Of a DNA stretch of 64,000 nucleotides, positions 28,168 to 50,132 are shown piece by piece. The notes under the pieces are model-generated. The model did not search any database and was not told the origin of the DNA. It saw only the letters and a program-made list of their open reading frames with translations. The stretch comes from Myxococcota bacterium. Its GTDB lineage: Bacteria; Myxococcota; Kuafuiibacteriia; Kuafuiibacteriales; Kuafuiibacteriaceae. Location: contig JBHJGZ010000009.1 in NCBI GenBank assembly GCA_050331295.1, forward strand, positions 279,950-343,949, in the 5' to 3' direction. A program made the translations under genes and the position numbers. Position 1 is the first letter of the stretch, and every line of letters begins with the position of its first letter.

Positions 28168-28806
28168 ATGCCACTTCACCTCGGAAAACCAGTTCCAAAC
28201 TTCCAACAGGATAGCACCGAAGGTCGCATCGATTTCTTCGAGTTCCTGGGCAACAGCTGGGGCGTGCTGTTCTCGCACCCGGCGGACTTCACTCCGGTTT
28301 GCACCACCGAACTCGGTGCGGTCGCCAAGCTCAAGTCTGAGTTCGAGAAGCGAAATACGAAGGTCATTGGTCTGTCGGTCGATCCCGTTGATTCCCACCA
28401 CGAATGGGTAAAGGACATCAACGACACGCAACGGACGACCGTGAACTTTCCGCTCATCGCGGACCATGACCGCAGCGTGGCGAAGCTCTATGACATGCTC
28501 CCGGACGACGCACCGGATACGATGACGGTGCGCAGCGTCTTCATCGTGGATCCAAAAAAAGTTCTCCGTCTCACGCTGACCTATCCAGCGTCCACCGGTC
28601 GCAATTTTCAGGAGATCCTACGGGTCATCGACTCGCTTCAACTCACCGATCATCATAAGGTGGCAACCCCTGCCGACTGGCAGCACGGTGATCGAGTCGT
28701 GATCGTTCCGTCGCTTCGGGATCCAGATGAATTGGCGAAGCGTTTTCCGCAAGGCTTCGACGAGCAGCGTCCCTATCTGCGGCTCACCGACCAGCCCAAG
28801 GACTGA
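28168..28806 (+). CDS. 1-Cys peroxiredoxin (Prx6 type)
   Basis: Track ORF 28141-28806; ATG 28168 (MPLHLGKPVPNF). WGVLFSHPADFTPVCTTELG with peroxidatic Cys. Length about 212 aa. Confidence 0.93.
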   Translation: MPLHLGKPVPNFQQDSTEGRIDFFEFLGNSWGVLFSHPADFTPVCTTELGAVAKLKSEFEKRNTKVIGLSVDPVDSHHEWVKDINDTQRTTVNFPLIADHDRSVAKLYDMLPDDAPDTMTVRSVFIVDPKKVLRLTLTYPASTGRNFQEILRVIDSLQLTDHHKVATPADWQHGDRVVIVPSLRDPDELAKRFPQGFDEQRPYLRLTDQPKD

Positions 28807-28807
28807 A

Positions 28808-31024
28808 CTATTCCAGAATGAGGTCGGTAGTCCGATAAGCCGCTGTCGGAAACTCATCCTCATCCAACCTTCGCATCGCCTCCATCAGCAGGTAGGTGTT
28901 CGACGCGTACAGATTCGCCGGGACGTCGACGGCCCGGTAGACGATGCGGAATCGACCGGTCCCCGGCATCGCCATACGAAAGAATTGTTCCTCCGCGGAC
29001 GGCTCAGCCGGCTCGACGCGATGAAGTCGTCCTTGGGCGATGAATATCCGGCCCTTCCTGCCATCGTCGTACTGCAGCTGCAGCTCGGCGTTCTTCCCGC
29101 CGACTTCCAGATTTTGCACCAAGTCCACGAGGGGCATCGCGGAGATGTCCCCGGAAACAACCGCTGGGACCGGTTCTGCCGGGAGGCGAGACGTCCCCAT
29201 CGCGCGTTGGGCCGCGCGACGGAGCTTCGAGACGGTCGGCTCCAGGGCCAACGGCTTCAAGAGGACATCCTCGGCTCCGAGCTCCAGAGCTCGCGCCTGA
29301 TGCGCATCGTCACGACGCCGGGAGCTGATGAACACGATGGTGTCCGGACTCTTGCGACGGGCCTCCAGAAGAAGATTCAAGCCATCCAGCCGAGGGAGTG
29401 CCGCATCGAACATGGCGACGACGACATGATGGTCGCCGAGGACCGAAAGCGCTTTCCGACCATCGTCTACTACCTGCACATCGAGATCCTCGGCCATCAG
29501 TCTTCGAACCACCTGCTGACAAGCCTCGGGGTCGGCATCGGCCAAGAGCACGATTCGCCGTGAGGACGATGCCTTAGGTTCGTGTATCGGATACCATCGG
29601 CTGAGGAGCTGCTGAAAACCTGACCGACTGGTGACCGCAGGCAACACGGACTTCACCCCGAGAACCACCATGAGTTCTAGCCTCCTTTGGGATTGCGCCG
29701 GATCGGCGGTAACCACGTGGGCCACTCCATTCGGTTCGATCAGGAAAGGGATCGATAGCGTCAGCTCGGCCGCGTCTCGAGGAAAGCGTCGTTGAAGGTT
29801 TGGGGGTGGTTCGAGTTCGCTCAGCTCGGCGGGCGCCAACCACCGATAGCCGAGCTGGTTGGCCACCGCTCGTGCGATGACGTCCTCGTCAACCATCTCC
29901 ATCTGAATCAGCACGTCTCCCAGCCGGCCTCCGCGAGCCCTCTGTTCGGCCAATCCCAACTGGAGGTCGTCCGAGCTGATGTGTCCGGAGTCGCGGAGGA
30001 CCTTGCCAAGCAGTGGACGAGGGGGTGGCTCGACGCCTCCGAGACCGGTGTACGCCGAAACCGAGGGGACCCTCGAGTTCAGCTGCCGGTCGACCGGGCT
30101 AACGAAGTGCCGCTGCATATACACCGCAAGGTCTCGTGGGGAGGCTTTCCGTGGCATCCGCTGTGATGCTCGCGTCAGCTCTCCCAGGAATGCCCCGACC
30201 GTTTGAAAGCGCAAGTTGCGGTCTCGTTCCAGAGCCCGACCGCAGATTTCATCCACTGCGTCCGTCACCTCCGAATTGATGGAGGAGGGCCGGGGAATGG
30301 ATTTGTGAACGACTTGCTCGACCGTCTCTTCTGGGTGACTGCCTCGGAACAATCGCTGACCTGTCAGCATCTCCCAGAGTACGACTCCCGCACTGAAGAT
30401 GTCCGACCGCTGGTCGATCGCAAGCCCTTGTACCTGCTCCGGGGACATGTATCCAAACTTCCCATGCAGGTTCCCTGGCAACGCATCGTTCTTCTCGGTC
30501 ACGACCCGAGCGATGCCGAAGTCGGTAACCTTCACTTCGCCTTCGTACGAAATGAGAATGTTCTGAGGTGAGATGTCGCGGTGAATGATCCCGAGCGGCA
30601 CGCCCTCGTCGCTTCGCTTTCGGTGGGCGTAGTCGAGACCAGAGAGAAACTCGGTAGCGATGCATAGAGAAATGTCGGCTGGAATCAGGTCTTTCTGGCG
30701 ATAGGCCCGAGAAAGTACCGCCGCGACGTCTCGACCTCGAACGTACTCCATCGCCAAGAAGACTTGGCCATCGATGGCTCCGAGATCGTGCACCTGAACG
30801 ATGTTGAAGTGCTGCAGATGAGCGGCAAGTTTAGCTTCGTTGATCAGCATGCGAACGAAAGTCTCGTTGCCGCTGTAGCGAGGCAGGATGCGTTTGAGGG
30901 CGAGCTGCTTCTCGAAGCCCGAGTATCCATGTCGCTTTGCTCGAAAGATCTCGGCCATGCCTCCATCGCCGATGCGCTCCAAGAGGACGTAGGGACCGAA
31001 GCGCAGTGCGTCGGACGAGGACAC
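28808..31024 (-). CDS. Ser/Thr protein kinase fused to T2SSE_N/MshEN-like domain, receiver (REC) domain and DUF4388-like domain
   Basis: 738 aa. Kinase: GDGGMAEIFRAK, LALKRI, IIHRDISPQNIL, VTDFGIA, GYMSPEQ. aa 338-390: LLGKVLRDSGHISSDDLQLGLAEQ-RARGG-RLGDVLIQMEMVDEDVIARAVANQ. REC: IVLLADAD, AMFDAALP, VFISS, LLKP. C-terminus: SGDISAMPLVDLVQNLEVGGKNAELQL...GRIFIAQGRL. Confidence 0.9.
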   Translation of the reverse strand: MSSSDALRFGPYVLLERIGDGGMAEIFRAKRHGYSGFEKQLALKRILPRYSGNETFVRMLINEAKLAAHLQHFNIVQVHDLGAIDGQVFLAMEYVRGRDVAAVLSRAYRQKDLIPADISLCIATEFLSGLDYAHRKRSDEGVPLGIIHRDISPQNILISYEGEVKVTDFGIARVVTEKNDALPGNLHGKFGYMSPEQVQGLAIDQRSDIFSAGVVLWEMLTGQRLFRGSHPEETVEQVVHKSIPRPSSINSEVTDAVDEICGRALERDRNLRFQTVGAFLGELTRASQRMPRKASPRDLAVYMQRHFVSPVDRQLNSRVPSVSAYTGLGGVEPPPRPLLGKVLRDSGHISSDDLQLGLAEQRARGGRLGDVLIQMEMVDEDVIARAVANQLGYRWLAPAELSELEPPPNLQRRFPRDAAELTLSIPFLIEPNGVAHVVTADPAQSQRRLELMVVLGVKSVLPAVTSRSGFQQLLSRWYPIHEPKASSSRRIVLLADADPEACQQVVRRLMAEDLDVQVVDDGRKALSVLGDHHVVVAMFDAALPRLDGLNLLLEARRKSPDTIVFISSRRRDDAHQARALELGAEDVLLKPLALEPTVSKLRRAAQRAMGTSRLPAEPVPAVVSGDISAMPLVDLVQNLEVGGKNAELQLQYDDGRKGRIFIAQGRLHRVEPAEPSAEEQFFRMAMPGTGRFRIVYRAVDVPANLYASNTYLLMEAMRRLDEDEFPTAAYRTTDLILE

Positions 31025-31150: not shown

Positions 31151-33844
31151 ATGGCCCGAGTTCACGTGGTCGATGGCTCCGGCTACATCTTCCGGGCCTA
31201 TTGGGCGATTCGGTCCCTGACCAATTCGGCGGGCGAAGCCACGAACGCGGTCTACGGCTTCGCCAACATGCTGGAGAAGCTGCTCCGGGAAGAAGCGCCG
31301 GACCACCTTTGCGTCGTGTTCGATGCAGGTACCGAGACTTTCCGGAACGAGCTCTATCCCCCTTACAAGGCCACCCGGCCTCCGCCCCCCGAGGACCTGC
31401 AGGCGCAGATACCCGAGATCCACAATCTTGTGGCGGCGATGGGGATTCGGTCCTTCGCCGTCGAAGGCGTCGAAGCCGACGACGTAATCGCGACGCTGGT
31501 GCAGCAAGGACGAGCGGAAAACTATGAGGTGCGATTGATATCAGGCGACAAGGACTTGATGCAATTGGTCACAGCGGGCGTCATGCTGTTCGAGCCCATG
31601 AAGGGCGAGACGTTCGACGCAGCCGGGGTGGAAGACAAGCTCGGCGTGCCGCCGGAGCTGGTAGCGGATGCTCTAGCGCTGGCAGGGGACAGTGCTGACA
31701 ATGTGCCAGGCGTCAAAGGTGTCGGCTTGAAAACCGCTGCAAAGTTGCTCCTGACCCATGGCTCGTTGGAGGCCGTGCTCGAAGCGGCGCAGCAAGGACA
31801 GGTGAAGGGCAAGGTAGGCGCCACGCTCGCCGATTCAGTCGAGCAGGCCCGCTTGTCGCGACGGCTCGTCGGTCTCAAGCCTGACGTCGAGCTCGGTCTC
31901 ACGTCGATGGCAGATCTGGCTTTTGCGGGGCCGGAACGTTCGACGCTCATCTCCTTCTATCGTTCAATGGAGTTCGACCGGCTGATCGAACGATGGGAGA
32001 CGTCGACAGCCTCACGGCCAGAGGACCGTGGAGGCGCGCAATCGCGCATTGAGCTTTCCGCGGATGTGCCCATTTTGTCGGCCGCGGAATTCGAAGGGTG
32101 GGCCGACGCGGCCTCGAAGGCTGGGTTTCTCGCCGTGGAGTTGGAGCTCACGACTGAGCGTATCGTCGACGCCGAGCTTGTCGGAATGGCGATCTCGATC
32201 GGTGATGATGCCGGGTACATTCCAGTTCGTCACGACGAGATAGCCAACGTCGATGAAGATGGCGTTGCTTCCTTTCTGACGACCATGCTCGGTTCGAATG
32301 TCAGAATCGTTTGCAGCCAATCAAAGCTCCTCTGGGGTTGGTTGATGATGCGAGGCTTGCCCGGGCCAGACGCCTTCTTCGACACAACCATTGCAAGTTA
32401 CCTTCTCGACCCCGACCAGGCCGACCACGACCCAGAGGGAGTTGCGAAACGACTCTTCGATGCGGAACCCGAACCGAAGGCGCCGGCCCTCCGAAAGGAT
32501 CGGAAACGACGGCCTTTCAGCTCGGTCGAGCCGAACCGAGCGGCTCGGATAGTTGGGCACGCAGCCCAGGTTTCATTTCATGCCGAAGACCCATTGCGGC
32601 AGGCCATCGAAGAGGAAGGGCTTACGGGTGTCTACAACGATATCGAGCTACCGCTCGTTCGGGTCCTGGCGAGAATGGAGCAGACTGGGATCAAGGTCGA
32701 CCTTTCACGACTCGCGGAGATGAAGCATGTGCTCCGAGCGGAACTCGAACGCCTGGAGGTGGATTGTTACGAGGCTGCCGGACGCGAGTTCAACGTGGGT
32801 TCCCCCAAACAACTCGAACAGATTCTTTTTGATGAATTGGAGCTGAAAATCGTGAAGCGAACGGCGACGGGTCGACCGTCGACGGACCATTCCGTGCTGG
32901 AAGCTCTGGCCGATTCGCACCCTCTCCCGCAGGCCGTCTTGGAGCATCGACTCGTCTCCAAGTTGAAGAGCACGTACGTCGATGCCTTGCCGCGGATGGT
33001 CTCGTCGAACACGGGGCGGGTCCATACTCACTTCAACCAGACGATGGCTGCGACGGGTCGACTGTCCTCTACGGACCCCAATCTCCAGAATATTCCGATT
33101 CGGACAGAACTGGGCCGGCAGCTCCGAACGGTTTTCGTGGCGGACTCTGGAATGCGCCTGATCTCGGTGGACTATTCTCAGGTCGAGCTCCGCGTCTTGG
33201 CGCACTTCACGAAGGAACCGGTGCTCGTGGAAGCCTTCATGGAAGGTGCGGATGTTCATACTCGAACCGCAGCACTGCTGTTCGAGGTTCCTGACGATCA
33301 GGTGACACGCGAGATGCGTACCCAGGCCAAGGCGGTGAACTTCGGTGTGTTGTACGGCATGGGGCCAATGAGATTGGCCCGAGACCTGAAGATTCCCCGG
33401 CGACAGGCTTCGACGTTCATCGACGATTACTTCGCCCGGCAGCCCGCCGTGAAAACGTTCATCGACGAGGTGATGGAAAGAGCGAGATCCGAAGGCATGG
33501 TTCGAACGCTCATGGGGCGCCTCCGTCGGATCCAGGATCTCGACGCCAAAAGCCGAGCGGCGCGAGCAGCGGCGGAACGGATCGCGCGGAACACGCCCAT
33601 TCAAGGCAGCGCGGCGGACCTCATCAAACTCGCGATGCTCCGGGTCGATGCCGACCTTCGGGAAAGGTTCCCCACCGCTCGTCTCGTCCTGCAGGTTCAC
33701 GATGAGCTGTTGGTGGAGGCGGAAGCAGATCAGGCCCAGGACGCGGCGGAATTGGTTCAGCGTCAGATGCAGAACGCCTTTCCGTTGGAAGTGCCGCTGG
33801 TGGCCGAGCCGCATATCGGGGAGACGTGGGATGAGGCCCATTGA
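31151..33844 (+). CDS. polA: DNA polymerase I
   Basis: 897 aa. 5'-nuclease N-terminus VHVVDGSGYIFRAYWA. Polymerase motif A DYSQVELRVLAH, motif B RTQAKAVNFGVLYGM, motif C LQVHDELLVEA. Confidence 0.97.
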   Translation: MARVHVVDGSGYIFRAYWAIRSLTNSAGEATNAVYGFANMLEKLLREEAPDHLCVVFDAGTETFRNELYPPYKATRPPPPEDLQAQIPEIHNLVAAMGIRSFAVEGVEADDVIATLVQQGRAENYEVRLISGDKDLMQLVTAGVMLFEPMKGETFDAAGVEDKLGVPPELVADALALAGDSADNVPGVKGVGLKTAAKLLLTHGSLEAVLEAAQQGQVKGKVGATLADSVEQARLSRRLVGLKPDVELGLTSMADLAFAGPERSTLISFYRSMEFDRLIERWETSTASRPEDRGGAQSRIELSADVPILSAAEFEGWADAASKAGFLAVELELTTERIVDAELVGMAISIGDDAGYIPVRHDEIANVDEDGVASFLTTMLGSNVRIVCSQSKLLWGWLMMRGLPGPDAFFDTTIASYLLDPDQADHDPEGVAKRLFDAEPEPKAPALRKDRKRRPFSSVEPNRAARIVGHAAQVSFHAEDPLRQAIEEEGLTGVYNDIELPLVRVLARMEQTGIKVDLSRLAEMKHVLRAELERLEVDCYEAAGREFNVGSPKQLEQILFDELELKIVKRTATGRPSTDHSVLEALADSHPLPQAVLEHRLVSKLKSTYVDALPRMVSSNTGRVHTHFNQTMAATGRLSSTDPNLQNIPIRTELGRQLRTVFVADSGMRLISVDYSQVELRVLAHFTKEPVLVEAFMEGADVHTRTAALLFEVPDDQVTREMRTQAKAVNFGVLYGMGPMRLARDLKIPRRQASTFIDDYFARQPAVKTFIDEVMERARSEGMVRTLMGRLRRIQDLDAKSRAARAAAERIARNTPIQGSAADLIKLAMLRVDADLRERFPTARLVLQVHDELLVEAEADQAQDAAELVQRQMQNAFPLEVPLVAEPHIGETWDEAH

Positions 33845-38328: not shown

Positions 38329-38502
38329 TCCATGCCCTTGCGCCACAGCGACGGGTTGGAGGCAAGTCATGGACCGTCGATGGGCCGCGAGATGCTCGTG
38401 GGCCTCAGATAGTTGCGCGGGTCTCGGCCCATGGTACATTCCGCAGCGTCGGGGGCAGCCCCGCATGAAGCGCAGCCGGCGCGACCAGGAGGTTCACCCG
38501 AA

Positions 38503-38982
38503 ATGATGTCGCAGATGGTGATGTACGACGAGGAAGCGCGTCGCATCACGGCGGTCTGCGATAAGCTGTGTCGAGATGCGAACGCGCGTGTTGTATTCGT
38601 CATCGATAAGAACGGCCAGCTCATCGCGTCGAGCGGCGAAGCCGACAAACTGGACGGCACGTCCCTCGCGTCCCTCGTCGCCGGGGAGATCGCAGCTACT
38701 GGAGGCCTCGCCAAACTCATGGGCGAGAAGGAGTTCAGCACCCTTTTTCACGAGGGCGAAAAGGACCACCTTCACATATCCCTGGTCGCAGGGCGCGTGA
38801 TCCTGGTGGTGATCTTTGACAGTCGTTCGAGCTTGGGGCTCGTCCGTCTTCGAGTGAAGAAGGGTTCAGAGGAACTCAACAAGGTCTTCGACGCAGTGCT
38901 GGAGAAGAGCCAGACACGAGGTCAAGAATCTCCTTTCGCCGAAATCACCGATGATGACATCGACAAGCTCTTTTCAACCTGA
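38503..38982 (+). CDS. mglB: MglB, Roadblock/LC7-family GTPase-activating protein of MglA
   Basis: Track ORF 38413-38982. ATG 38503 is preceded by AGGAGG (38487-38492). Immediately upstream of mglA (11-nt gap). Roadblock-like core [20 protein letters not shown]...[20 protein letters not shown]. Confidence 0.85.
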
Positions 38983-38993
38983 GGGTCCGGACC

Positions 38994-39581
38994 GTGCCGT
39001 TTATCAACTACTCATCAAGAGAGATTAACTGCAAAATAGTGTACTACGGACCTGGCTTATGTGGAAAGACCACGAATCTTCAATATATTTACAATAAGAC
39101 CAGTCCTCAAGCGAAAGGGAAGATGATTTCTCTGGCAACCGAGACCGAGCGCACCTTGTTCTTTGACTTCCTCCCTCTTTCCTTGGGCGAGATCCGAGGC
39201 TTTCGAACACGATTCCACCTCTATACGGTGCCTGGACAGGTCTTCTACAACGCGAGCCGGAAGCTCATATTGAAAGGAGTCGACGGTGTGGTGTTCGTAG
39301 CCGACAGTCAGATGGAGCGTATGGAGGCCAATCAAGAGTCGATTGAGAATCTACGAGAGAACCTTAAAGAACAGGCTTATGACATCGAGAAGATTCCGTT
39401 GGTCATGCAGTACAACAAGCGAGACCTGCCCAACGCGGCTTCGATCGAAGAACTATCGGCGTCCATCAACGCCCTTCGTAGACCTGAGTTTGAAGCCACG
39501 GCGACCCGGGGCATCGGTGTCTTCGACAGCTTGAAGGAGGTCGCCAAGCTCGTCCTGCAGGAGCTCAAGAAGGGGAAGTAG
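38994..39581 (+). CDS. mglA: MglA, Ras-like small GTPase controlling cell polarity/motility
   Basis: 195 aa, GTG start. [58 protein letters not shown]. Near-identical to M. xanthus MglA as I remember it. Confidence 0.95.
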
Positions 39582-41638: not shown

Positions 41639-44600
41639 ATGATGAGACTGTCCATGCCCCTGCTCCCGCGAATGTGGCCCGCTTTCTTCGTGGTCCTTTG
41701 GGCCGCCGTGGTCCAGGTGCAATGTGATGTCCCTCGAGCTGACGACATCGACCGAGTCCAGCCAGGTTTCGTGTCCAAAGCCATCTTTCAAACCGGAGAC
41801 GCCTGGCACTACCGAAGGACCATCGCCGATGCGACCACCACGAACTCGTGGATCATCCGAGGTTCGGGGGACATTCAGATCGACCGCATCGTCTTTGAGA
41901 TCCAAGAGTCTCTTCTCCTCGCGCGAAAGCCGTACAACGCGATCCCTGGAGCCGGCCTTGACGCCCTGCCAGGTGCTCTCGAGTTCAATGGCCCAGTGCT
42001 CGCTGCTTGGCCCATCGACTCTCATTTCGATATCATTCGCAACTACGACGAGCTCACCGGACGCGAGACCAACGAGATCGTCGAGAATACGGCCGACCGA
42101 CCATGGTACGAGCGGCAGTACATGCGCGTCGATTTCTCGACCAACCTGGTCGAGGATAGCTTCCTCGGTGCTTACTCTCAATATTGGACTCCGGTGCAGT
42201 TCGCGAGCACGGGAAGTTTCTGGCAACACATCACCGAGAATCCCACCAACCCATTCGCGAGCCGCTTCTCCGAAGATTACATCGAGATAACCGACAACGT
42301 CCTCCTGTCCATGGACGTGTTCGCGTGTAGTGCCTTCTTTGGGCAGTACCGAGGCCTCTCGGGTGAGACGTGTGGCTTTGGCGAGGCAAAGGTTCGCCAC
42401 AGCTTCCGGCGGGTTCGGCAACCCAACGACTTCGAACCTCGATTCCTGCCCGATTCCGTCGTGGTTCGAGACGAAAATGGAGAACCCGTTCAGGACCCCG
42501 ATACGAATGAGGTCGTAAGGGAGTCGCTGGATGACCGATTTGGAATCTTCCGAAACCGCACGCCCACCTACGACCGGGGTTATGGGTTCACTGAAGACGG
42601 GCGTTTGTTCCGGGCCCAGATATTCGATATCTGGGAGGAAAGTGTCGATGACGCCGGAGCAGCTCTTTCGTATGCCGACCGAGACGAAAAGCCTATCATC
42701 TACTATTTGAATGCAGAGTATCCGGAGCGCTATCGCGACGTCGCCCGCGAGGTCGCCGAAGAATACAATCGTGTCTTCAAGAACATGGTCGCGAATCTCA
42801 AAGGTGTATCACCCGCAGAGGTTCGAGACATGTTCGAGATCCGCGACAATCATTGCCGCGAAGACAGGATCATCGAGACGGTCCTTTCGAGACCAGAGCT
42901 ATTGCGAGCGATTGAAAGAGCGGTATGCAGCCAGGATGACGACGGATGCGCCTTTACGGCGGATGACCCTGCGGCGCTGCGTTCGGAGCTCGAGGATCAA
43001 ATCGGCATCGGGAATCTCGAGGTTGTCTGCACATCTCTCGAAGAAGCAACCATGGATCCCGAGACCGGGATCTCGGGTTTCGAATGGCAGAGGATCGGGG
43101 ACCTCCGCCATAACATGGTGGTCTGGCTCAGCGAACCACAGCCGGCTGGCTGGTTGGGATTTGGTCCGGCCCACAGCGATGCGCTGACGGGCGAAGTCAT
43201 CTCTGCAACCGCCTATATTCAGGGTGCGCCTCTCGAAGTCGATGCGGCCGAAGTCGCGGACTACATATGTTTCATGAATGACGAGCCGGGCTGTGGTGTG
43301 GCGGACATCATTTATGGCCGGGACATTCGAAGACAGATCGGTCGAGTCGAGCGACGAGTGATCGAAATGGCGACTCAGCGACCCGGAAAGAGCGCAGTCT
43401 CCGAGCTGGCGCGCCGTCTCAACGGTGGCGTCGGACCGGGCCATTCGACAACACGGCTACCGACTGCTCCGACTGCTGACGCAACGACGCTGCGTCTTCA
43501 GCGCCTCGCGGGCCACCCACTGGAACAACGCTTCATCACCGACGAGTTCAAGATCGCGCTTTCAAATGGCACATGGCTTCCGGGACGGCCCGAGCCTCCG
43601 TGGCTCCAAGACCTGGCTCACCTCGGTGATGCGTGGGAGGCCATGAATCCGTACTCGCGAACGCGAACGCAGCAACGACAGGTACTGAACGCGGGAGGCT
43701 TTTGCTTTTTGGAGGCAGACTTCGACCCCCATTTTGCAGGTCTTGCGCTGGACCTTCGAGACCTCTCTCGCGAGGAACGCTTTGCCGTCATCGCCGGACG
43801 ATTGGCCAAGTACATCATGCTTCACGAGATCGGTCACAATCTCGGTTTATCTCACAATTTTCAGGGCACCTACGATGCTCTCAACTATGACGCAAATTTC
43901 TGGATGAGTCTCGACCAGGCCCCCGAGCAACAAATCGAGAATAGCCTCGATGAATATCGGCACACCACGGTCATGGAGTACATGTCGAGTAAGGGACTGT
44001 TCGCGGATTTTTTGGGCTCCTACGACGAGGCCGCGATTCGATTTGCCTACGCAAACCAGGTTCAAGTTTTCACCAGTGAGAATTTCCGAACCGAAGGTGG
44101 TGACGCCCTCGAAGGGTGGACGCTTTACAACGACTACCGAAAGATTCCCGACCATCTCTGCGGCGGTTCCTGTGCAACACCTGCCGCACGCACGGAGGTG
44201 CTCACGAGCCGAGACTGGGTCACTTTCGATCCCGCAGATCCTCCGCCGAACGAAGTCCCATACATGTTCTGCGACAGTCTCTTTGATCGAAGGACGCCTT
44301 TCTGCGCGACGTTCGACTACGGCTCGAGCCTGAGTGAGATACAGGCAAATTACTACAATATGTGGAAGCTCTATTTCCCCTTCAACAACTTTTCGCGAGG
44401 GCGGCTTTCGCCGCTGGGCTGGAACATCTCGAGTGCGTTTCGTCCCATGAGCCTGATGTGGAACTTCATGGATGTGACAAGCCAGTATTATCAGATTCTT
44501 CAGTCAACGGACCCAGCCTTCGAAGGTACGGATCTGCAGGCTGATATGGTGGGAACTTTGTTGAACTCGATGAACATCATGACCGAAGTTCTGACGATTC

Positions 44601-45586
44601 CGGCGCCGGGACGTTACTGCCCCAATCTGCCCGGGGACGGCACGTCCATTGGTCAGGAAATCGATCGACCCGTGTATCTACCTGGGATCACGAACGGCTG
44701 CGACCCCGAAGTCGATATCGCCTCGCTTCGGTCTCGAAGCGCAATCGACTTGGCGATGGGTGACGGCCGACCGGAATTCCTCGATTTCACAAACGAGTTC
44801 GAAGAACAGCAGATTTGGTACATCGGTTCTGCATTCGATAAGCTAGACGCTTTGATTTTGTGGGGATGGACGATTCCTCGACAGTACCGATTCAATTACG
44901 ATCTCGATGAACGAAATTTTTATCTCAGTACCTATCGCTTGTTCGAGCCCGAGATGCGTGAGTTTTACGGCCAGCTGTTGGACCTCGACTTCCTCATTTC
45001 CATCGATTTCGCCCTCGAGCTCGGATCGTTTTGGTGTCGTAATCCAGAACATCCGATACATGCGGACCTCGGCTATTTGGAGGCTCGCCGCATGTTCGAA
45101 GTTTCCGCTGAGTCCTTCGAATCGTTTCCGGAGAGTTCCGACGACTGCCTCGACCCGGGTGTCATTTATCCTTCCTACTTCATCAACCTGACTGACCAGG
45201 CACTCTTGGTGGCCCACGCTGTACTGTCTTCGGATCTGGACCAAAGACTGGACCTCGGCAAGAACCTCAAGATCTGGGGTGTAGGAGCCTACGACGAGCC
45301 GAGCTCACTCTCTGATGAGAGCGTTCCTTTGTGCACTGAGTTGGCGGCCCGAGATGTCGACTGTTTGTGTTCCTACACGGATCCGCTCACCGGTGTCGAG
45401 TACCGAGGTTTGAATTTGAGCTTTGAAGGTCGTTCGAGTCTGGCTTGCAACCTGATCGCATTGGCCGAGAATCGCGGGTCTCGCTACGCGGACGACCCAG
45501 ATTTTTCGAGCTTCGACATCTGGAGGATCGCGGTGGAAAGGCTCGAAGCGAACCGTACCCTATACCGGATCTTTCAGGACCGATGA
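41639..45586 (+). CDS. giant secreted/lipoprotein zinc metalloprotease (metzincin HExxHxxGxxH), paralog A
   Basis: 1315 aa. Signal peptide ending VQVQC. HEIGHNLGLSHNFQGTYD at nt 43823-43855 onward. Met-turn-like HTTVMEY. Shares DRPWYERQYMRVDFS with paralog B. Confidence 0.8.
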   Translation: MMRLSMPLLPRMWPAFFVVLWAAVVQVQCDVPRADDIDRVQPGFVSKAIFQTGDAWHYRRTIADATTTNSWIIRGSGDIQIDRIVFEIQESLLLARKPYNAIPGAGLDALPGALEFNGPVLAAWPIDSHFDIIRNYDELTGRETNEIVENTADRPWYERQYMRVDFSTNLVEDSFLGAYSQYWTPVQFASTGSFWQHITENPTNPFASRFSEDYIEITDNVLLSMDVFACSAFFGQYRGLSGETCGFGEAKVRHSFRRVRQPNDFEPRFLPDSVVVRDENGEPVQDPDTNEVVRESLDDRFGIFRNRTPTYDRGYGFTEDGRLFRAQIFDIWEESVDDAGAALSYADRDEKPIIYYLNAEYPERYRDVAREVAEEYNRVFKNMVANLKGVSPAEVRDMFEIRDNHCREDRIIETVLSRPELLRAIERAVCSQDDDGCAFTADDPAALRSELEDQIGIGNLEVVCTSLEEATMDPETGISGFEWQRIGDLRHNMVVWLSEPQPAGWLGFGPAHSDALTGEVISATAYIQGAPLEVDAAEVADYICFMNDEPGCGVADIIYGRDIRRQIGRVERRVIEMATQRPGKSAVSELARRLNGGVGPGHSTTRLPTAPTADATTLRLQRLAGHPLEQRFITDEFKIALSNGTWLPGRPEPPWLQDLAHLGDAWEAMNPYSRTRTQQRQVLNAGGFCFLEADFDPHFAGLALDLRDLSREERFAVIAGRLAKYIMLHEIGHNLGLSHNFQGTYDALNYDANFWMSLDQAPEQQIENSLDEYRHTTVMEYMSSKGLFADFLGSYDEAAIRFAYANQVQVFTSENFRTEGGDALEGWTLYNDYRKIPDHLCGGSCATPAARTEVLTSRDWVTFDPADPPPNEVPYMFCDSLFDRRTPFCATFDYGSSLSEIQANYYNMWKLYFPFNNFSRGRLSPLGWNISSAFRPMSLMWNFMDVTSQYYQILQSTDPAFEGTDLQADMVGTLLNSMNIMTEVLTIPAPGRYCPNLPGDGTSIGQEIDRPVYLPGITNGCDPEVDIASLRSRSAIDLAMGDGRPEFLDFTNEFEEQQIWYIGSAFDKLDALILWGWTIPRQYRFNYDLDERNFYLSTYRLFEPEMREFYGQLLDLDFLISIDFALELGSFWCRNPEHPIHADLGYLEARRMFEVSAESFESFPESSDDCLDPGVIYPSYFINLTDQALLVAHAVLSSDLDQRLDLGKNLKIWGVGAYDEPSSLSDESVPLCTELAARDVDCLCSYTDPLTGVEYRGLNLSFEGRSSLACNLIALAENRGSRYADDPDFSSFDIWRIAVERLEANRTLYRIFQDR

Positions 45587-45602
45587 TGAGAGGAGCCGGG
45601 TG

Positions 45603-48600
45603 ATGAAACGACTGAGCGGGCTGCTGTGGATGCTGTGGGCGCTGGGGTGCTCCAGCGACGTGAGCACGATAGACCGGACCCAGCCGAATGCGCTCGACAA
45701 GACGGCTTTTGAGGGGATTTGGATGTATCGGCCGACCATCATCGAGGCCGATCCGGAGTCGCCAGTCTTCGAAGGCATCGCTGGAATGATGGACAAGGTC
45801 CGTTGGGAAATCACGGAGGACCTTCTCATCGGATACCGGAGTTATGAACTGATACCATACGCAGAAGGATTGACCGATGACGGCCGAGACTTCTTCGGTT
45901 CACCGGCAGTAGCCTTCGAAATCACCAGTCACTTCGATATCCAACGAGAATATAATCCAACTACTGGCGTAGAAACGAACGTGATCTCGGAAAATACAGA
46001 CGACAGACCTTGGTATGAGCGAAGGTATATGCGAGTAGATTGGTCCGTCAATGTAGTTGGCCAAGCGACGCCTACGTCATTTGGGTTTGGTTCGCTCAAC
46101 GGGATCCTCAGTGGCGTCGCGACGCAGTCGTACTTTGTCCAAGGTCAGCAGGAAACCAATCCCGACCGCCCGTACATAACTCGGGACTACATGGATATCA
46201 CAAACGTATATTCGATAGAGCCGTCTTTTAATTATTGTGTATATCAACTTTTGTTCAATTCGGTTCCGAGATGCGGGACGGCGAATGTGAAAGTCCGTCT
46301 TTCGTTTTTGAAGGTGGACCCTTCTGATGACTACGAGCCGCTGTATTATCCGGACACGTTTGAGTACCGCGATGAAGAAGGTAATCCGCTCGTGCTCGAC
46401 GCGCGAGACAACGAGTGTGATGCGAATGACGACCCAGCAAGAGCGGGCTGCTTCATTCGTGGCTATCGCTTTTTCTCAAAGTTCGGAAACTTCCGAATCA
46501 ACCGGGTAGCATTCGACCGTGAGAGGTTTCAGACGCGTTCTGGCCGCGTGTTCCTCGCGGGACGTTACGACCTCTGGGAAGAAAGCTTTGACGACGACGG
46601 TACGCTTCTCCCCTACGAGACGAGGCGGCCACGCCCGGTCATCTTCTACAACAGTCCGTCGATGCCGGAGGCTCTTCAAGAAGCATCGGTCAATTGGAGT
46701 CCTCCGTCGGAAGGCGAGTCGTCGTCCGACCCCATCGGAGCGTGGTGGTCGGAGCCATTCGATCAGGCGGTTGCCTTCCGAATGGGTTTTCGTGCTCCAA
46801 GCGGGAATCACGCTGACGTCGCGGGATTCCGGTCCGCGATGGTGCAGCGATTCGGAGGGAGCACCCAAGACTGGCAGATGTTTCAGATCCGTCGTAACGA
46901 CTGCAATGCGGAGAATGTCCTGCAGTACGCCGAGGCCAATGAGCTCATGGACGTGGTCGATCGTGTCGTGGGAGGACCAGAATCGATCCAGGTAGGCAAC
47001 ATCGAGAACCTGTGCGCGGCGATTCAGTACCAGGAACTTCAGAACGGAAAGACCCTCGACCCATTCATCGCTCGGCGCGACGGTCGTGAGCTCGCCTTCA
47101 CCTGGCAGCGTCACGGTGATCTGCGTTTCAACTACAGCAACTATGTACATCAGCTCTCGAACGGACCTTGGGGCGTGGCCCAGTTTGGTCAGGACCCCGA
47201 GACAGGCGAATTCGTGGCCAACACCGCCAATTACTTCGGTGATGCTGGGGACCGCATCGCGACAGCAGGCGTCGACACGATTCAGTGGCTCAACGGAGAC
47301 GTTTCGACCGAAGATATCGTGACGGGCAACACCACGAGGACGTTCTCTCAGCGGGTGGCCAGAGACTTCAGCATTCGACGGGACGTGAAAGCGGCGATGA
47401 CGAGGGATCTTTCATCGATACTGCAGAGCGGGGTGGTCGGCGAATTGCCTCCGAATGTAGGAGCGGGAGCTTCAGGCCTTTCGAGAGGAGCGAGTGACCG
47501 GGATCGATACGAAGCCATCTTCGCGGGGACGCCTCTGGAGCGCGAATTCCTGGTGTCGGAGGACCTGCTTCGGGTCTTTGCAGGGCCCCATCTGTATCAG
47601 CCCGAGGATGGCCCGCTCCCTGCTCCAGCTGCTGATTTGGGCTTGCCAGGTGTGTTGCCGGGTCGAGTGACCGACGACGCGCTCGAGCAGGCGTCTCCCA
47701 TGACGTGGCTCTTCGACTTTGAAAACGGGCCATACATGCAAGCGGTCACAGAGCTGGGTTCGGCAGCCATCGACATGGCGGAGTTCTTCGATCCGAACGT
47801 GAGTGGCCTGGCGCAAGAGTTCAAAGGTAGAGAGAGAGAGGAGATCTTCGACTATCTTCGAGTTCGGCTTTTCAAGACGATTCAGGCCCACGAGATAGGT
47901 CATGCGGTGGGACTCCGTCACAACTTTCAAGGTTCGATGGATCCATTAAATTATCGTCGGGAGTTTTGGGAGCAGTTTTATGAAGAGGGAACCGACGGAC
48001 GCCCGACCCCCGGGAGCGGGAGTCGGGCCGAGGAATACAAGTACTCCTCGGTCATGGACTATGGTTTCGATTTCTCTAGTAATGTCTCTCCAGGTCTCGG
48101 CAGCTATGACCAAGCCGCCGTTCGTTTTATTTATGGTCAGCTTGTCGATGTGTGGGATAACTCACAGATAGCCATACCGGATCCGAGACGCTACGGAAGT
48201 TACGCATTTCGATGCGGTGCCGTGGATGACGCCTACATCGATAGTGGTTTCGATCTCAGCTCTCTCCTTTTCTTGAGTGACCCTGCCGACATTCCCCGGA
48301 TTCTGAGTCAGAGCCCCGTCGATCTTCCGCAGTGTAGGGGTGAAGTACCAGGCTACAATTATGACCGGAGCGAGGAATGTGACACAGAGCTCGACGGCTT
48401 GTTTCGGAACGTTGCCGAGGCTGCCGACCAGAACGCAGCGGCGGTCGAACTCTCCAATTTTTGCTTCATTCAGACGAATCCGGACCGCGTGGATGTCGTC
48501 AACGCGGTCCAGAACATCGTTCCGAATACCGATCTGATCTACGGAGCGAGAGCCTTGGCTACCGTGGAGGACATGATCGAGCAGGCTCAATCCGCCTTTG

Positions 48601-50132
48601 AGTCGGAACCGGAGGTGGATGACCCAACGACGCCATTCGTCAGAGTCGATCGCGGGGCCGACGGAATGCCTTGTTTCATCGGCATCGAGAATCAGGATTG
48701 TATCGATGATGATGAAGATGGGGTTGAGGATGACAAGGGCTTCGACTGGTCTCAGTGGAGGCATGAGATTCCCTATGGGTACTGTTCGGATCTCTTCGCG
48801 AACTATACGAATCCATTCTGTCAAAGATGGGATGCGGGCTGGGATTTCAGAGAGTCTGTAGAGAATGCCATCATTCGTTATGACCGAGACTACATATGGC
48901 GCTCGTTTCAACGGGACAGAAGTAATTTTGGCAGCCCGAACTCGCTGGTCAACCAACTGATTAATCGTCGATTCAAGGTCATGTCCGATGTCTATAGATA
49001 TTTTTTATTTACCAGGAGCTCGGATGTGGACTTTGGTCGAGTGGCGGACTATCAGGATGCGGCGTATATAGGGTTGAATTTTTTGGAACGTGTGCTTCAA
49101 TCACCAGAGCCCGGCATCTACTGCCTTGGCGAAGATAATGTATATCGTCTTCGAGCTTCCAGCGCCGATGGCTCGTGCGACGAGCCGTATGAAGTAGGGC
49201 TCGGTTTCGGAGCGGGAGCGTTTCATGAGAACTCTTGGAACGACGAGTACTACTTCAATACCACGGTCCTCGGGTCGTTCTGGGACAAGCTCGTTGCAGC
49301 GTTCATGCTCACGAGGTCGACGGGTTCGTTCGCATTCGAGGTATCGGATCTCTTTGATCAGCGCGCCTTTTCCTATCCCTACCTCCGCACCTTCCAGGAC
49401 CCGATGCTCCAGAGGATGAATTCGATGATATCAGGCGATTTCGAAGGCTATCGCTCACGGGTTGTGCCGGTCGATCCGGACGAACCGAACGGTGAACGCA
49501 TGGTTCGGTACATGCCATTGTTCGACGAGGAATTCGATAACGGGCGACCCGATGGGCTATCCGGGACTTCGGTTCGAGGATGGATGCGAGACAACGACTT
49601 TCCGGAGATCGAACCGGCATGGTCGTATCAGCTTCGGCTTTGGTCGCTCGCTTTTTCGCTGACTGGTTGGGGGAACCTGGCTGATACGTCGCTCGAGTAC
49701 TACCGTCTTGCAAAGGTTTCAATCCCTGGGACACCCGATCACACCGAGTACAACGGAGTGGAGACGGTCCGCTTCGTGGATCCTGAGACCGGTATCGAGT
49801 ACGTGGCTCCACGGGTGGAGCCCTTTCTGCAGCGTGAAACGGTCGGTGTCTTTCGAGCATATTATGGGGATCGAAACGACCGCTTAAGGGGCGACTTCCG
49901 CGAGTGGAGCGTCGGAGCTGAACTCGTACAAACGGCGGACCGCTTCAAGGACGATGTCTATCTGCCGGCCTTGGAAGCGTGCGAAGAGTCGGCCCCCGAC
50001 GTCTCGCCGGAGCTGGCGACAACCGAGGAATGCACCTCATTTCAACGAGCCAGAGATGAACTCGCGGACCAGGTAGGTTTCCTGAACATGCTGCGCCGCT
50101 TTTCGGTCAGCGCCGAGCGCATCTATCGGTGA
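45603..50132 (+). CDS. giant lipoprotein zinc metalloprotease (metzincin HExxHxxGxxH), paralog B
   Basis: Track ORF from GTG 45600; ATG 45603 lies 7 nt after GAGAGGAG. MKRLSGLLWMLWALGC lipobox. HEIGHAVGLRHNFQGSMD at nt 47889-47921 onward. YSSVMDY. DRPWYERRYMRVDWS. Confidence 0.8.
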   Translation: MKRLSGLLWMLWALGCSSDVSTIDRTQPNALDKTAFEGIWMYRPTIIEADPESPVFEGIAGMMDKVRWEITEDLLIGYRSYELIPYAEGLTDDGRDFFGSPAVAFEITSHFDIQREYNPTTGVETNVISENTDDRPWYERRYMRVDWSVNVVGQATPTSFGFGSLNGILSGVATQSYFVQGQQETNPDRPYITRDYMDITNVYSIEPSFNYCVYQLLFNSVPRCGTANVKVRLSFLKVDPSDDYEPLYYPDTFEYRDEEGNPLVLDARDNECDANDDPARAGCFIRGYRFFSKFGNFRINRVAFDRERFQTRSGRVFLAGRYDLWEESFDDDGTLLPYETRRPRPVIFYNSPSMPEALQEASVNWSPPSEGESSSDPIGAWWSEPFDQAVAFRMGFRAPSGNHADVAGFRSAMVQRFGGSTQDWQMFQIRRNDCNAENVLQYAEANELMDVVDRVVGGPESIQVGNIENLCAAIQYQELQNGKTLDPFIARRDGRELAFTWQRHGDLRFNYSNYVHQLSNGPWGVAQFGQDPETGEFVANTANYFGDAGDRIATAGVDTIQWLNGDVSTEDIVTGNTTRTFSQRVARDFSIRRDVKAAMTRDLSSILQSGVVGELPPNVGAGASGLSRGASDRDRYEAIFAGTPLEREFLVSEDLLRVFAGPHLYQPEDGPLPAPAADLGLPGVLPGRVTDDALEQASPMTWLFDFENGPYMQAVTELGSAAIDMAEFFDPNVSGLAQEFKGREREEIFDYLRVRLFKTIQAHEIGHAVGLRHNFQGSMDPLNYRREFWEQFYEEGTDGRPTPGSGSRAEEYKYSSVMDYGFDFSSNVSPGLGSYDQAAVRFIYGQLVDVWDNSQIAIPDPRRYGSYAFRCGAVDDAYIDSGFDLSSLLFLSDPADIPRILSQSPVDLPQCRGEVPGYNYDRSEECDTELDGLFRNVAEAADQNAAAVELSNFCFIQTNPDRVDVVNAVQNIVPNTDLIYGARALATVEDMIEQAQSAFESEPEVDDPTTPFVRVDRGADGMPCFIGIENQDCIDDDEDGVEDDKGFDWSQWRHEIPYGYCSDLFANYTNPFCQRWDAGWDFRESVENAIIRYDRDYIWRSFQRDRSNFGSPNSLVNQLINRRFKVMSDVYRYFLFTRSSDVDFGRVADYQDAAYIGLNFLERVLQSPEPGIYCLGEDNVYRLRASSADGSCDEPYEVGLGFGAGAFHENSWNDEYYFNTTVLGSFWDKLVAAFMLTRSTGSFAFEVSDLFDQRAFSYPYLRTFQDPMLQRMNSMISGDFEGYRSRVVPVDPDEPNGERMVRYMPLFDEEFDNGRPDGLSGTSVRGWMRDNDFPEIEPAWSYQLRLWSLAFSLTGWGNLADTSLEYYRLAKVSIPGTPDHTEYNGVETVRFVDPETGIEYVAPRVEPFLQRETVGVFRAYYGDRNDRLRGDFREWSVGAELVQTADRFKDDVYLPALEACEESAPDVSPELATTEECTSFQRARDELADQVGFLNMLRRFSVSAERIYR

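Follow-up and report, generated by a model that had tools for sequence, protein, structure and literature searches.

A soluble Hanks-type kinase of uncultured Myxococcota with an MshEN domain predicted to bind c-di-GMP

Described MshEN proteins and the window kinase

Known effectors of the second messenger cyclic di-GMP (c-di-GMP) are transcription factors, riboswitches, PilZ and MshEN proteins, degenerate GGDEF/EAL proteins and some histidine kinases; to our knowledge, a response to it has not been demonstrated for any Hanks-type Ser/Thr kinase. The Myxococcota are unusually rich in both second-messenger signalling and eukaryotic-like phosphorylation. The protein considered here is encoded on a stretch of 64,000 nucleotides (hereafter the window) from a Myxococcota metagenome-assembled genome (MAG; contig JBHJGZ010000009.1, positions 279,950 to 343,949), and it joins in one chain of 738 residues a Hanks-type kinase, an MshEN domain, a receiver (REC) and a PATAN (DUF4388) domain. 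It is probably a soluble kinase gated both by c-di-GMP and by phosphorylation of its receiver, and docked onto other proteins through PATAN, with ligand binding, phosphorylation, coupling and partners all being predictions. With its kinase and ligand-contact residues intact and a docking domain in place, the family offers a clean, soluble test case for the wiring between c-di-GMP and eukaryotic-like phosphorylation in Myxococcota.

The closest MshEN domains of known structure are those of V. cholerae MshE (PDB 5HTL) and of Thermus PilF, where the GSPII-B domain is represented by PDB 8PDK and related entries; both share with the window protein a two-subdomain MshEN fold and the 24+5+24 motif. 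The MshE consensus comprises six key residues per motif (R, L, G ... L ... L ... Q), together with core hydrophobic residues and a turn glycine, and a Leu was shown to stack on guanine, with the L58A substitution costing 10-fold in affinity (Wang et al. 2016, PMC5013675). PilF GSPII-B was found to bind c-di-GMP with a dissociation constant (KD) of 6 nM without any Arg, such that position 1 of a motif may be R, K or L; the K167L substitution gave a KD of 2 nM and K167R one of 150 nM, the double substitution Q190E+Q218E abolished binding, and D266 in the C-terminal subdomain was shown to hydrogen-bond guanine, with D266A weakening the interaction (Neissner et al. 2024, PMC11731258). It was also shown that c-di-GMP reorients the two MshEN subdomains of GSPII-B (PMC11731258). 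PilF GSPII-B and the window protein are alike in that one of the two motifs opens with a hydrophobic residue and not with Arg. They differ in setting, since in PilF and MshE the domain lies at the N-terminus of a type II secretion or type IV pilus ATPase, whereas in the window protein it lies in the middle of a kinase.

Fusions of MshEN to REC, HD-GYP, CheA, CheX, cyclases and Ser/Thr kinases have been catalogued, and Supplementary Table 4 of that work lists both 'Pkinase-MshEN-UNK-REC', represented by Stigmatella PKN11, and 'MshEN-HD-GYP-REC-DUF4388', represented by MXAN_2809 (Wang et al. 2016, PMC5013675). Because of this listing the kinase-MshEN fusion class is already published, and the window kinase family is a variant of a fusion type catalogued in 2016, although the exact Pkinase-MshEN-REC-PATAN arrangement is absent from the table. 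A first-pass annotation of the window, made from the letters of the DNA alone, had described the domain combination as not known to be characterised. This holds insofar as no experimental work on any MshEN-kinase was found in the literature, but the combination is less new than had been supposed. What the family offers is a well-defined experimental target and not a new principle, given a sequence-based claim and a fusion class listed in 2016.

Stigmatella aurantiaca PKN11 (STAUR_4477) is, like the window protein, a Myxococcota protein in which a Hanks kinase is followed by MshEN and then by a receiver. Unlike the window protein, it is listed without DUF4388 and with an unassigned stretch separating MshEN from REC; its motif 1 seems to open with Arg, as far as the garbled scan of the supplementary alignment can be read. 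PKN11 is absent from the 120 best matches to the window protein, and a search with its MshEN_N fragment (an approximate query, rebuilt from optical-character-recognition text of the Wang et al. supplement) returned nothing that scored. The MXAN_2809/MXAN_2807-type proteins of M. xanthus share MshEN and a C-terminal REC-PATAN pair with the window protein, and members of this type (P0123-P0133) are the next-best matches to aa 333-738, with 27-32% identity over the REC-PATAN part. In these proteins an HD-GYP phosphodiesterase lies between MshEN and REC, whereas the window protein has an N-terminal kinase, and the HD-GYP protein of the window is separate, degenerate and encoded nearby. The PatA-type regulators (PixG, PixE and LsiR of Synechocystis, PatA of Anabaena) pair PATAN with a receiver, as does the window protein, but they are cyanobacterial, have the order PATAN-REC and contain neither an enzymatic domain nor MshEN; the window protein, with REC before PATAN and a kinase and MshEN in front, falls outside this group. 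M. xanthus also encodes the protein kinase Pkn1. In the literature Pkn1 is grouped with the PilZ-domain proteins, PilZ being a known type of c-di-GMP-sensing domain, whereas the window protein has MshEN with its contact residues intact.

The kinase family and its predicted ligand site

Searches of the 738-residue open reading frame (ORF) against Pfam found four domains, each above its gathering score (Pkinase, MshEN, Response_reg and DUF4388), in accord with the domain calls of the first-pass annotation. All of the residues quoted there are present on translation, the strand, which had been left unstated, is minus, and nt 29855-30013 are the right coordinates for aa 338-390 on that strand. An AlphaFold2 model built on a 35-sequence family alignment likewise contains four well-folded units, with a per-residue confidence (predicted local distance difference test, pLDDT) of about 82-96 across MshEN, REC and PATAN. 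Hydropathy over 19 residues peaks at 1.34, within a strand of REC, and no transmembrane-like segment was seen; the protein is therefore taken to be soluble, and a membrane receptor kinase was ruled out for want of any hydrophobic segment in the 738 residues.

A family search over 5.8 billion proteins, in which the 120 best matches were considered and conservation was counted over 81 sequences, returned about 80 protein clusters that share the Pkinase-MshEN-REC-DUF4388 architecture at 38-68% identity. Named sources carry only the label 'protein kinase' and are all from Myxococcota, Myxococcales or 'Deltaproteobacteria' MAGs. None of the 120 best matches is assigned to a cultured organism, and the full-architecture matches are all from MAGs, which are of uncultured Myxococcota wherever an organism is given. 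At least 14 species-representative genomes carry the architecture, and among the matches listed full-length relatives occur only in uncultured Myxococcota MAGs. By these comparisons, and among the 120 best matches, the family is not visibly orthologous to any protein of a cultured organism. One MAG, D1-CHI-08, has two family copies, of which one (L005) lies by polA and the other (L019) is unlinked and followed, about 4 kb downstream, by another kinase-like match.

The kinase domain is matched by Pfam Pkinase (aa 12-261, 145 bits) and by the NCBIfam PknB/Stk1-type model (aa 12-296), and its catalytic residues are all present, namely K44 (in LALKRI), E63, H148-R149-D150 (in HRDISPQN), N155, D168-F169-G170 and S194-P195-E196. 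K44, E63, HRD, N155, DFG and P195-E196 are invariant in the family (81/81), and S194 is found in 79 of the 81. With the full-length model as query, Foldseek matched kinase domains only, led by those of M. tuberculosis PknB (E 8e-19, template-modelling (TM) score about 0.8 on the target), and returned nothing that informs the other three domains. Residues, Pfam score and PknB-like fold thus agree with the intact Hanks kinase of the first-pass annotation, and as judged from its residues the protein is a catalytically competent, PknB-like Ser/Thr kinase.

Residues 338-390 read LLGKVLRDSGHISSDDLQLGLAEQ / RARGG / RLGDVLIQMEMVDEDVIARAVANQ, and the 24+5+24 layout that had been noticed in the first pass is exact. 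The NCBIfam model NF053729 ('c-di-GMP_motif') matches aa 339-390 with 52.4 bits (cut-off 38, E 3.3e-14), well outside chance expectation, and spans model positions 2-53 of 53; because the model is matched end to end and above its cut-off, the pattern is real and complete. The same model is matched by 19 of the 19 family members tested. Pfam MshEN (PF05157), which models only the C-terminal MshEN subdomain while NF053729 catches the N-terminal four-helix bundle with the ligand site, matches aa 399-479 with 36.9 bits (gathering score 23.1). In a PDB sequence search, aa 336-478 could be aligned over their whole length to the three MshEN/GSPII domains of Thermus PilF (E about 1e-10 for this stretch, 3.6e-28 for PilF as a whole), and a weaker match to V. 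cholerae MshE was also found (E 0.008). AlphaFold2 predicts helices at 339-345, 351-364, 368-374 and 380-391 in MshEN_N, with pLDDT 82-94.

At the level of individual residues, L338, L339, G340, L354, L358 and Q361 of motif 1 fit the extended (R/K/L)LG consensus at six of six key positions, and R367, L368, G369, I383, V387 and Q390 of motif 2 comprise four identical and two conservative residues. Alignment to PilF places L338 at K167, Q361 at Q190, Q390 at Q218 and D441-P442 at D266-P267. Conservation at these positions is high: G340, Q361 and Q390 are invariant (81/81), G369 and P442 each occur in 80 of the 81 members, R367 in 76 and D441 in 74, and every one of the 81 has hydrophobic residues at positions 17 and 21 of both motifs. 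The 53 residues of MshEN_N are free of insertions and deletions in 80 of the 81 sequences. The spacer (aa 362-366; 29927-29941, minus strand) is near-invariant in this kinase family, with R362, A363 and G365 in 81/81, G366 in 76 and R364 in 64, unlike the five-residue spacer of MshE, which is described as non-conserved.

Several features nevertheless weigh against ligand binding. The deviations from the MshE consensus were listed correctly in the first-pass annotation: in motif 1, L for R at position 1, and R344 at position 7 and H348 at position 11, both of which are normally in the hydrophobic core; in motif 2, E376 for G at position 10, and I383 and V387 for L at positions 17 and 21, where Leu stacks on guanine. 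The missing Arg is no defect, since Leu fits (R/K/L)LG and PilF K167L binds with a KD of 2 nM. E376 is a deviation that matters more than the missing Arg. Of the two turn glycines (equivalent to G18 and G47 of MshE) G347 is kept and the second is replaced by E376, at a position that is G in 64 of 81 relatives, although AlphaFold2 still predicts a four-helix bundle. The window protein also differs from PilF and MshE in having Ala at the equivalent of R268, and its binding is only predicted. Across the 81 sequences, position 1 of motif 1 is P in 59, L in 12, A in 7 and never R, such that most family members have Pro where R, K or L would be expected, and Pro at this position is admitted only by the relaxed search motif of Wang et al. 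(PMC5013675).

Taken together, these deviations could mean that the MshEN domain has lost c-di-GMP binding and now serves as a protein-interaction or oligomerisation module, like PilF GSPII-A and the N1 domains of XpsE/GspE, which would leave a kinase under receiver control that has two docking domains but lacks a nucleotide input. Some listed MshEN proteins, e.g., XpsE, have lost binding (Wang et al. 2016, PMC5013675), and in PilF GSPII-A a near-consensus motif did not bind even once the consensus was restored, a failure ascribed partly to an N-capped, elongated helix 1 (PMC12002112); a near-consensus or fully restored motif may thus still not bind. However, GSPII-A departs at both Gln positions (H33 and R62), which the window family does not, and in the window protein a Pro-rich PPPRP directly precedes L338, so that an extended, capped helix 1 of the GSPII-A kind seems unlikely. 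Furthermore, Leu at position 1 improves binding in PilF (PMC11731258), the NF053729 score is well over its curated cut-off, the spacing of MshEN_N is broken in one member only, and the polar ligand contacts are kept in 74-81 of the 81 sequences. If there were no ligand, it would be difficult to account for selection that falls on just these contact positions. Loss of binding is considered unlikely on this evidence, and c-di-GMP binding by the MshEN domain of the window protein, as predicted from its contact residues, is rather probably real.

Receiver, PATAN domain and proposed mode of action

The receiver is matched over the full domain by Response_reg (aa 492-596, 57 bits), is modelled by AlphaFold2 with pLDDT about 90 or higher, and has all the positions that the first-pass annotation had pointed out, that is, D496-A497-D498, D540, S567/S568 and K590-P591. 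At position 540, D occurs in 68 of 76 aligned members and E in 7; T or S at position 567 and K590 each occur in 70, and D496 and K590-P591 are conserved across the family. The acidic pair weighs on the other side, being D-A-D instead of DD, with the Pfam register placing Ala at the second Asp, and D498 is variable (D in 61 members, N in 8, E in 4). These features, along with the Glu that replaces D540 in seven relatives, would fit a pseudo-receiver that is never phosphorylated, in which case REC-PATAN would act as a constitutive tag for localisation, leaving c-di-GMP, or no signal at all, as the sole input. No histidine kinase was found among the larger ORFs of the window scanned with Pfam, and non-phosphorylatable PATAN regulators, such as PixE, do exist (PMC11181946). 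Against this explanation, D540, T/S567, K590-P591 and D496 are conserved as would be expected of a working phospho-acceptor pocket, in a domain that Response_reg covers in full. Orphan receivers are, moreover, common in Myxococcota. A receiver that is never phosphorylated is accordingly held to be improbable.

The DUF4388-like tail of the first-pass annotation is a PATAN (PatA_N) domain, matched by PF14332 at aa 624-723 with 52.1 bits (cut-off 25) over model positions 1-121 of 122. A stand-alone AlphaFold2 model of aa 616-730 has a pLDDT of 93.2 and a beta-alpha-beta3-alpha-beta-alpha topology. No sequence relative of the domain was found in the PDB and no structural neighbour either (best Foldseek E 0.08, TM score 0.37 or lower), and the PATAN fold appears to be without a representative among solved structures. 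In cyanobacteria PATAN is a protein-docking output domain, which in Synechocystis binds PilB1 and PilC, and for PixG it has been proposed that phosphorylation of REC exposes PATAN (PMC11181946). PATAN is also found joined to ComFB, another c-di-NMP receptor (PMC12448109).

The REC-PATAN pair is not restricted to the kinase family, as it also occurs behind MshEN-HD-GYP and TPR modules, and alone. A search with an MshEN-REC profile at 50% clustering returned roughly 20 representatives of the kinase family together with sibling groups, which have the MshEN-REC-PATAN cassette behind N-terminal regions that are only weakly kinase-similar. Members of these groups (P0153, P0155, P0156, P0158, P0236, P0251, P0262 and P0274) have no Pfam kinase match at E up to 1e-5; by BLAST, most of their N-terminal regions are only 21-32% similar to the window kinase and that of P0156 is not similar at all, and in P0155 the catalytic motifs are lost, with HGE for HRD and LGV for DFG. 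By such comparisons, the MshEN-REC-DUF4388 siblings without a kinase match appear to be pseudokinase sister families. Because the cassette recurs behind HD-GYP, TPR and pseudokinase-like modules, MshEN-REC-PATAN can be regarded as a portable sensing and targeting unit. That it follows pseudokinases and non-kinase modules as well suggests that its primary job is sensing and docking, with the N-terminal module supplying the output, and the logic of a portable sense-and-dock cassette, once solved, could apply widely.

That the kinase integrates c-di-GMP and phosphorelay input, as the first-pass annotation had proposed, is the best-supported hypothesis. In such a mechanism c-di-GMP would stack on L338 and R367 of MshEN, pack against the L339/I383/V387 and L354/L358/L368 clusters, and form hydrogen bonds with Q361, Q390, D441 and the backbone of G340 and G369, and its binding would reorient the two MshEN subdomains as in PilF GSPII-B. 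D540 would be phosphorylated by a histidine kinase encoded elsewhere, at an unlinked locus, which may free the PATAN surface as proposed for PixG and allow PATAN to dock the kinase onto partner proteins. Substrate phosphorylation by the kinase, and the place at which it happens, would then be set by the two inputs together. The type IV pilus or the polarity machinery would be the most probable site of action and is the leading candidate by analogy, since Synechocystis PATAN binds PilB1 and PilC. On the other hand, AlphaFold2 gives no confident inter-domain packing (predicted TM score, pTM, 0.47), and because of this the coupling between the domains is purely inferred.

A more far-reaching proposal is put forward tentatively, and with some doubt: the protein might provide a first direct link from c-di-GMP to Ser/Thr phosphorylation, as a dual-input kinase that PATAN delivers to the type IV pilus or MglA/MglB, where it would phosphorylate motility proteins, with the neighbouring HD-GYP and HEAT-repeat proteins as partners or substrates.

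That the multi-domain ORF is an artefact of assembly or annotation that fuses separate genes, a concern in that the window comes from a MAG, has next to no probability and was ruled out: the architecture is uninterrupted in about 80 clusters from many studies, in related loci and in at least 14 species-representative genomes, 9 contigs of independent assemblies (one a 643-kb MAG contig) encode an identical 738-residue protein, and the linkers are short, with no internal stop.

Gene neighbourhood

The positions of the domains and of the flanking genes are collected in Table 1. An upstream ATG (31032-31030) was considered as a start for the kinase gene but is out of frame, and the GTG start, which agrees with the N-termini of homologues, stands. 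Scans for promoters and terminators around the kinase gene gave none exceeding the shuffled expectation.

Table 1. Coordinates of the kinase gene, its domains and its neighbours in the window
Feature	Position in window	Strand	Basis and remarks
Kinase gene, whole (738-aa ORF)	28808-31024	minus	ORF list and translation; GTG start at 31024, stop codon 28808-28810
Hanks-type (PknB-like) kinase domain, aa 12-296	30137-30991	minus	Pfam Pkinase; NCBIfam PknB/Stk1-type model
MshEN_N, aa 338-390, four-helix bundle with 24+5+24 c-di-GMP motif	29855-30013	minus	NF053729; AlphaFold2
MshEN_C (T2SSE_N1-like), aa 391-480, includes D441-P442	29585-29854	minus	Pfam PF05157; PilF alignment
Receiver (REC), aa 490-612, D540 as phospho-acceptor	29189-29557	minus	Pfam Response_reg
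PATAN (DUF4388 / PatA_N), aa 622-725	28850-29161	minus	Pfam PF14332
polA (DNA polymerase I)	31151-33844	plus	Pfam DNA_pol_A and 5'-3' exonuclease domains; divergent, 126-bp intergenic region
1-Cys peroxiredoxin gene	stop codon 28804-28806	plus	ORF and Pfam; convergent
Degenerate HD-GYP protein, 475 aa	26689-28116	plus	Pfam HD_5, 57 bits; convergent to kinase
HEAT-repeat protein, 726 aa	24512-26692	plus	Pfam HEAT_2

Synteny was compared over 13 related loci (L001-L013). The polA gene, which serves as a synteny marker, lies directly beside the kinase gene and divergent from it in 12 of them; the L006 contig stops within the kinase gene. In 8 of the 13 polA-linked loci the kinase has the degenerate HD-GYP gene as its convergent neighbour, and the HEAT gene accompanies the latter in 7 of these, whereas in the eighth the fetched DNA ends first. 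In the window, the stop of the HEAT gene overlaps the HD-GYP start by 4 bp, from which it follows that the two are in one operon. The first-pass annotation had placed a degenerate HD-GYP gene about 0.7 kb away on the other strand, and it was found to end 692 bp from the kinase stop codon, on the plus strand, with HD changed to SD and GYP to PYRDP, despite which the HH and ADAFDALT motifs are kept. Among eight sequences (the window and L001, L002, L003, L006, L009, L011 and L012) [SA][DN] stands in place of HD and P[YF]R/xDP in place of GYP, and because the same degeneracy is seen in the seven orthologues the protein is regarded as a conserved pseudo-enzyme. A functional link between the kinase and this neighbour is inferred only, and the synteny with polA and HD-GYP could simply reflect shared ancestry, which again weighs against a working connection. 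M. xanthus FrgA has the architecture MshEN-UNK-HEAT; a search of the neighbouring HEAT and HD-GYP proteins, with E up to 0.01, gave neither a c-di-GMP motif nor MshEN, and a comparison of these two proteins for a common N-terminal domain gave no similarity between them.

The peroxiredoxin gene occurs in only 2 of the 13 related loci and for this reason looks like a local insertion at the junction of the kinase and HD-GYP genes; the asnB-like, HEAT-repeat and HD-domain genes, which make up an operon convergent to the kinase gene, lie on the same strand, behind it. A single base separates the peroxiredoxin stop codon (28804-28806, plus strand) from that of the kinase gene (28808-28810, minus strand), and genes placed so nearly back to back leave no room for separate terminators.

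The rest of the window contains mostly housekeeping genes, and neither GGDEF/EAL nor pilus genes were found among the larger ORFs scanned with Pfam. On the plus strand at 38413-39581, about 7.4 kb from the start of the kinase gene, is a probable mglB-mglA polarity operon. It encodes an MglB-like protein of 189 aa (NCBIfam MglB model, 82.8 bits) followed by a Ras-like GTPase of 195 aa, the sequence of which we take to resemble M. xanthus MglA closely. Farther along the same strand, at 41639-50132, two adjoining giant ORFs of 1315 and 1510 aa each have a weak Met-zincin (DUF4953) match, and this region has a G+C content of 0.54-0.57 versus about 0.60-0.62 elsewhere in the window.

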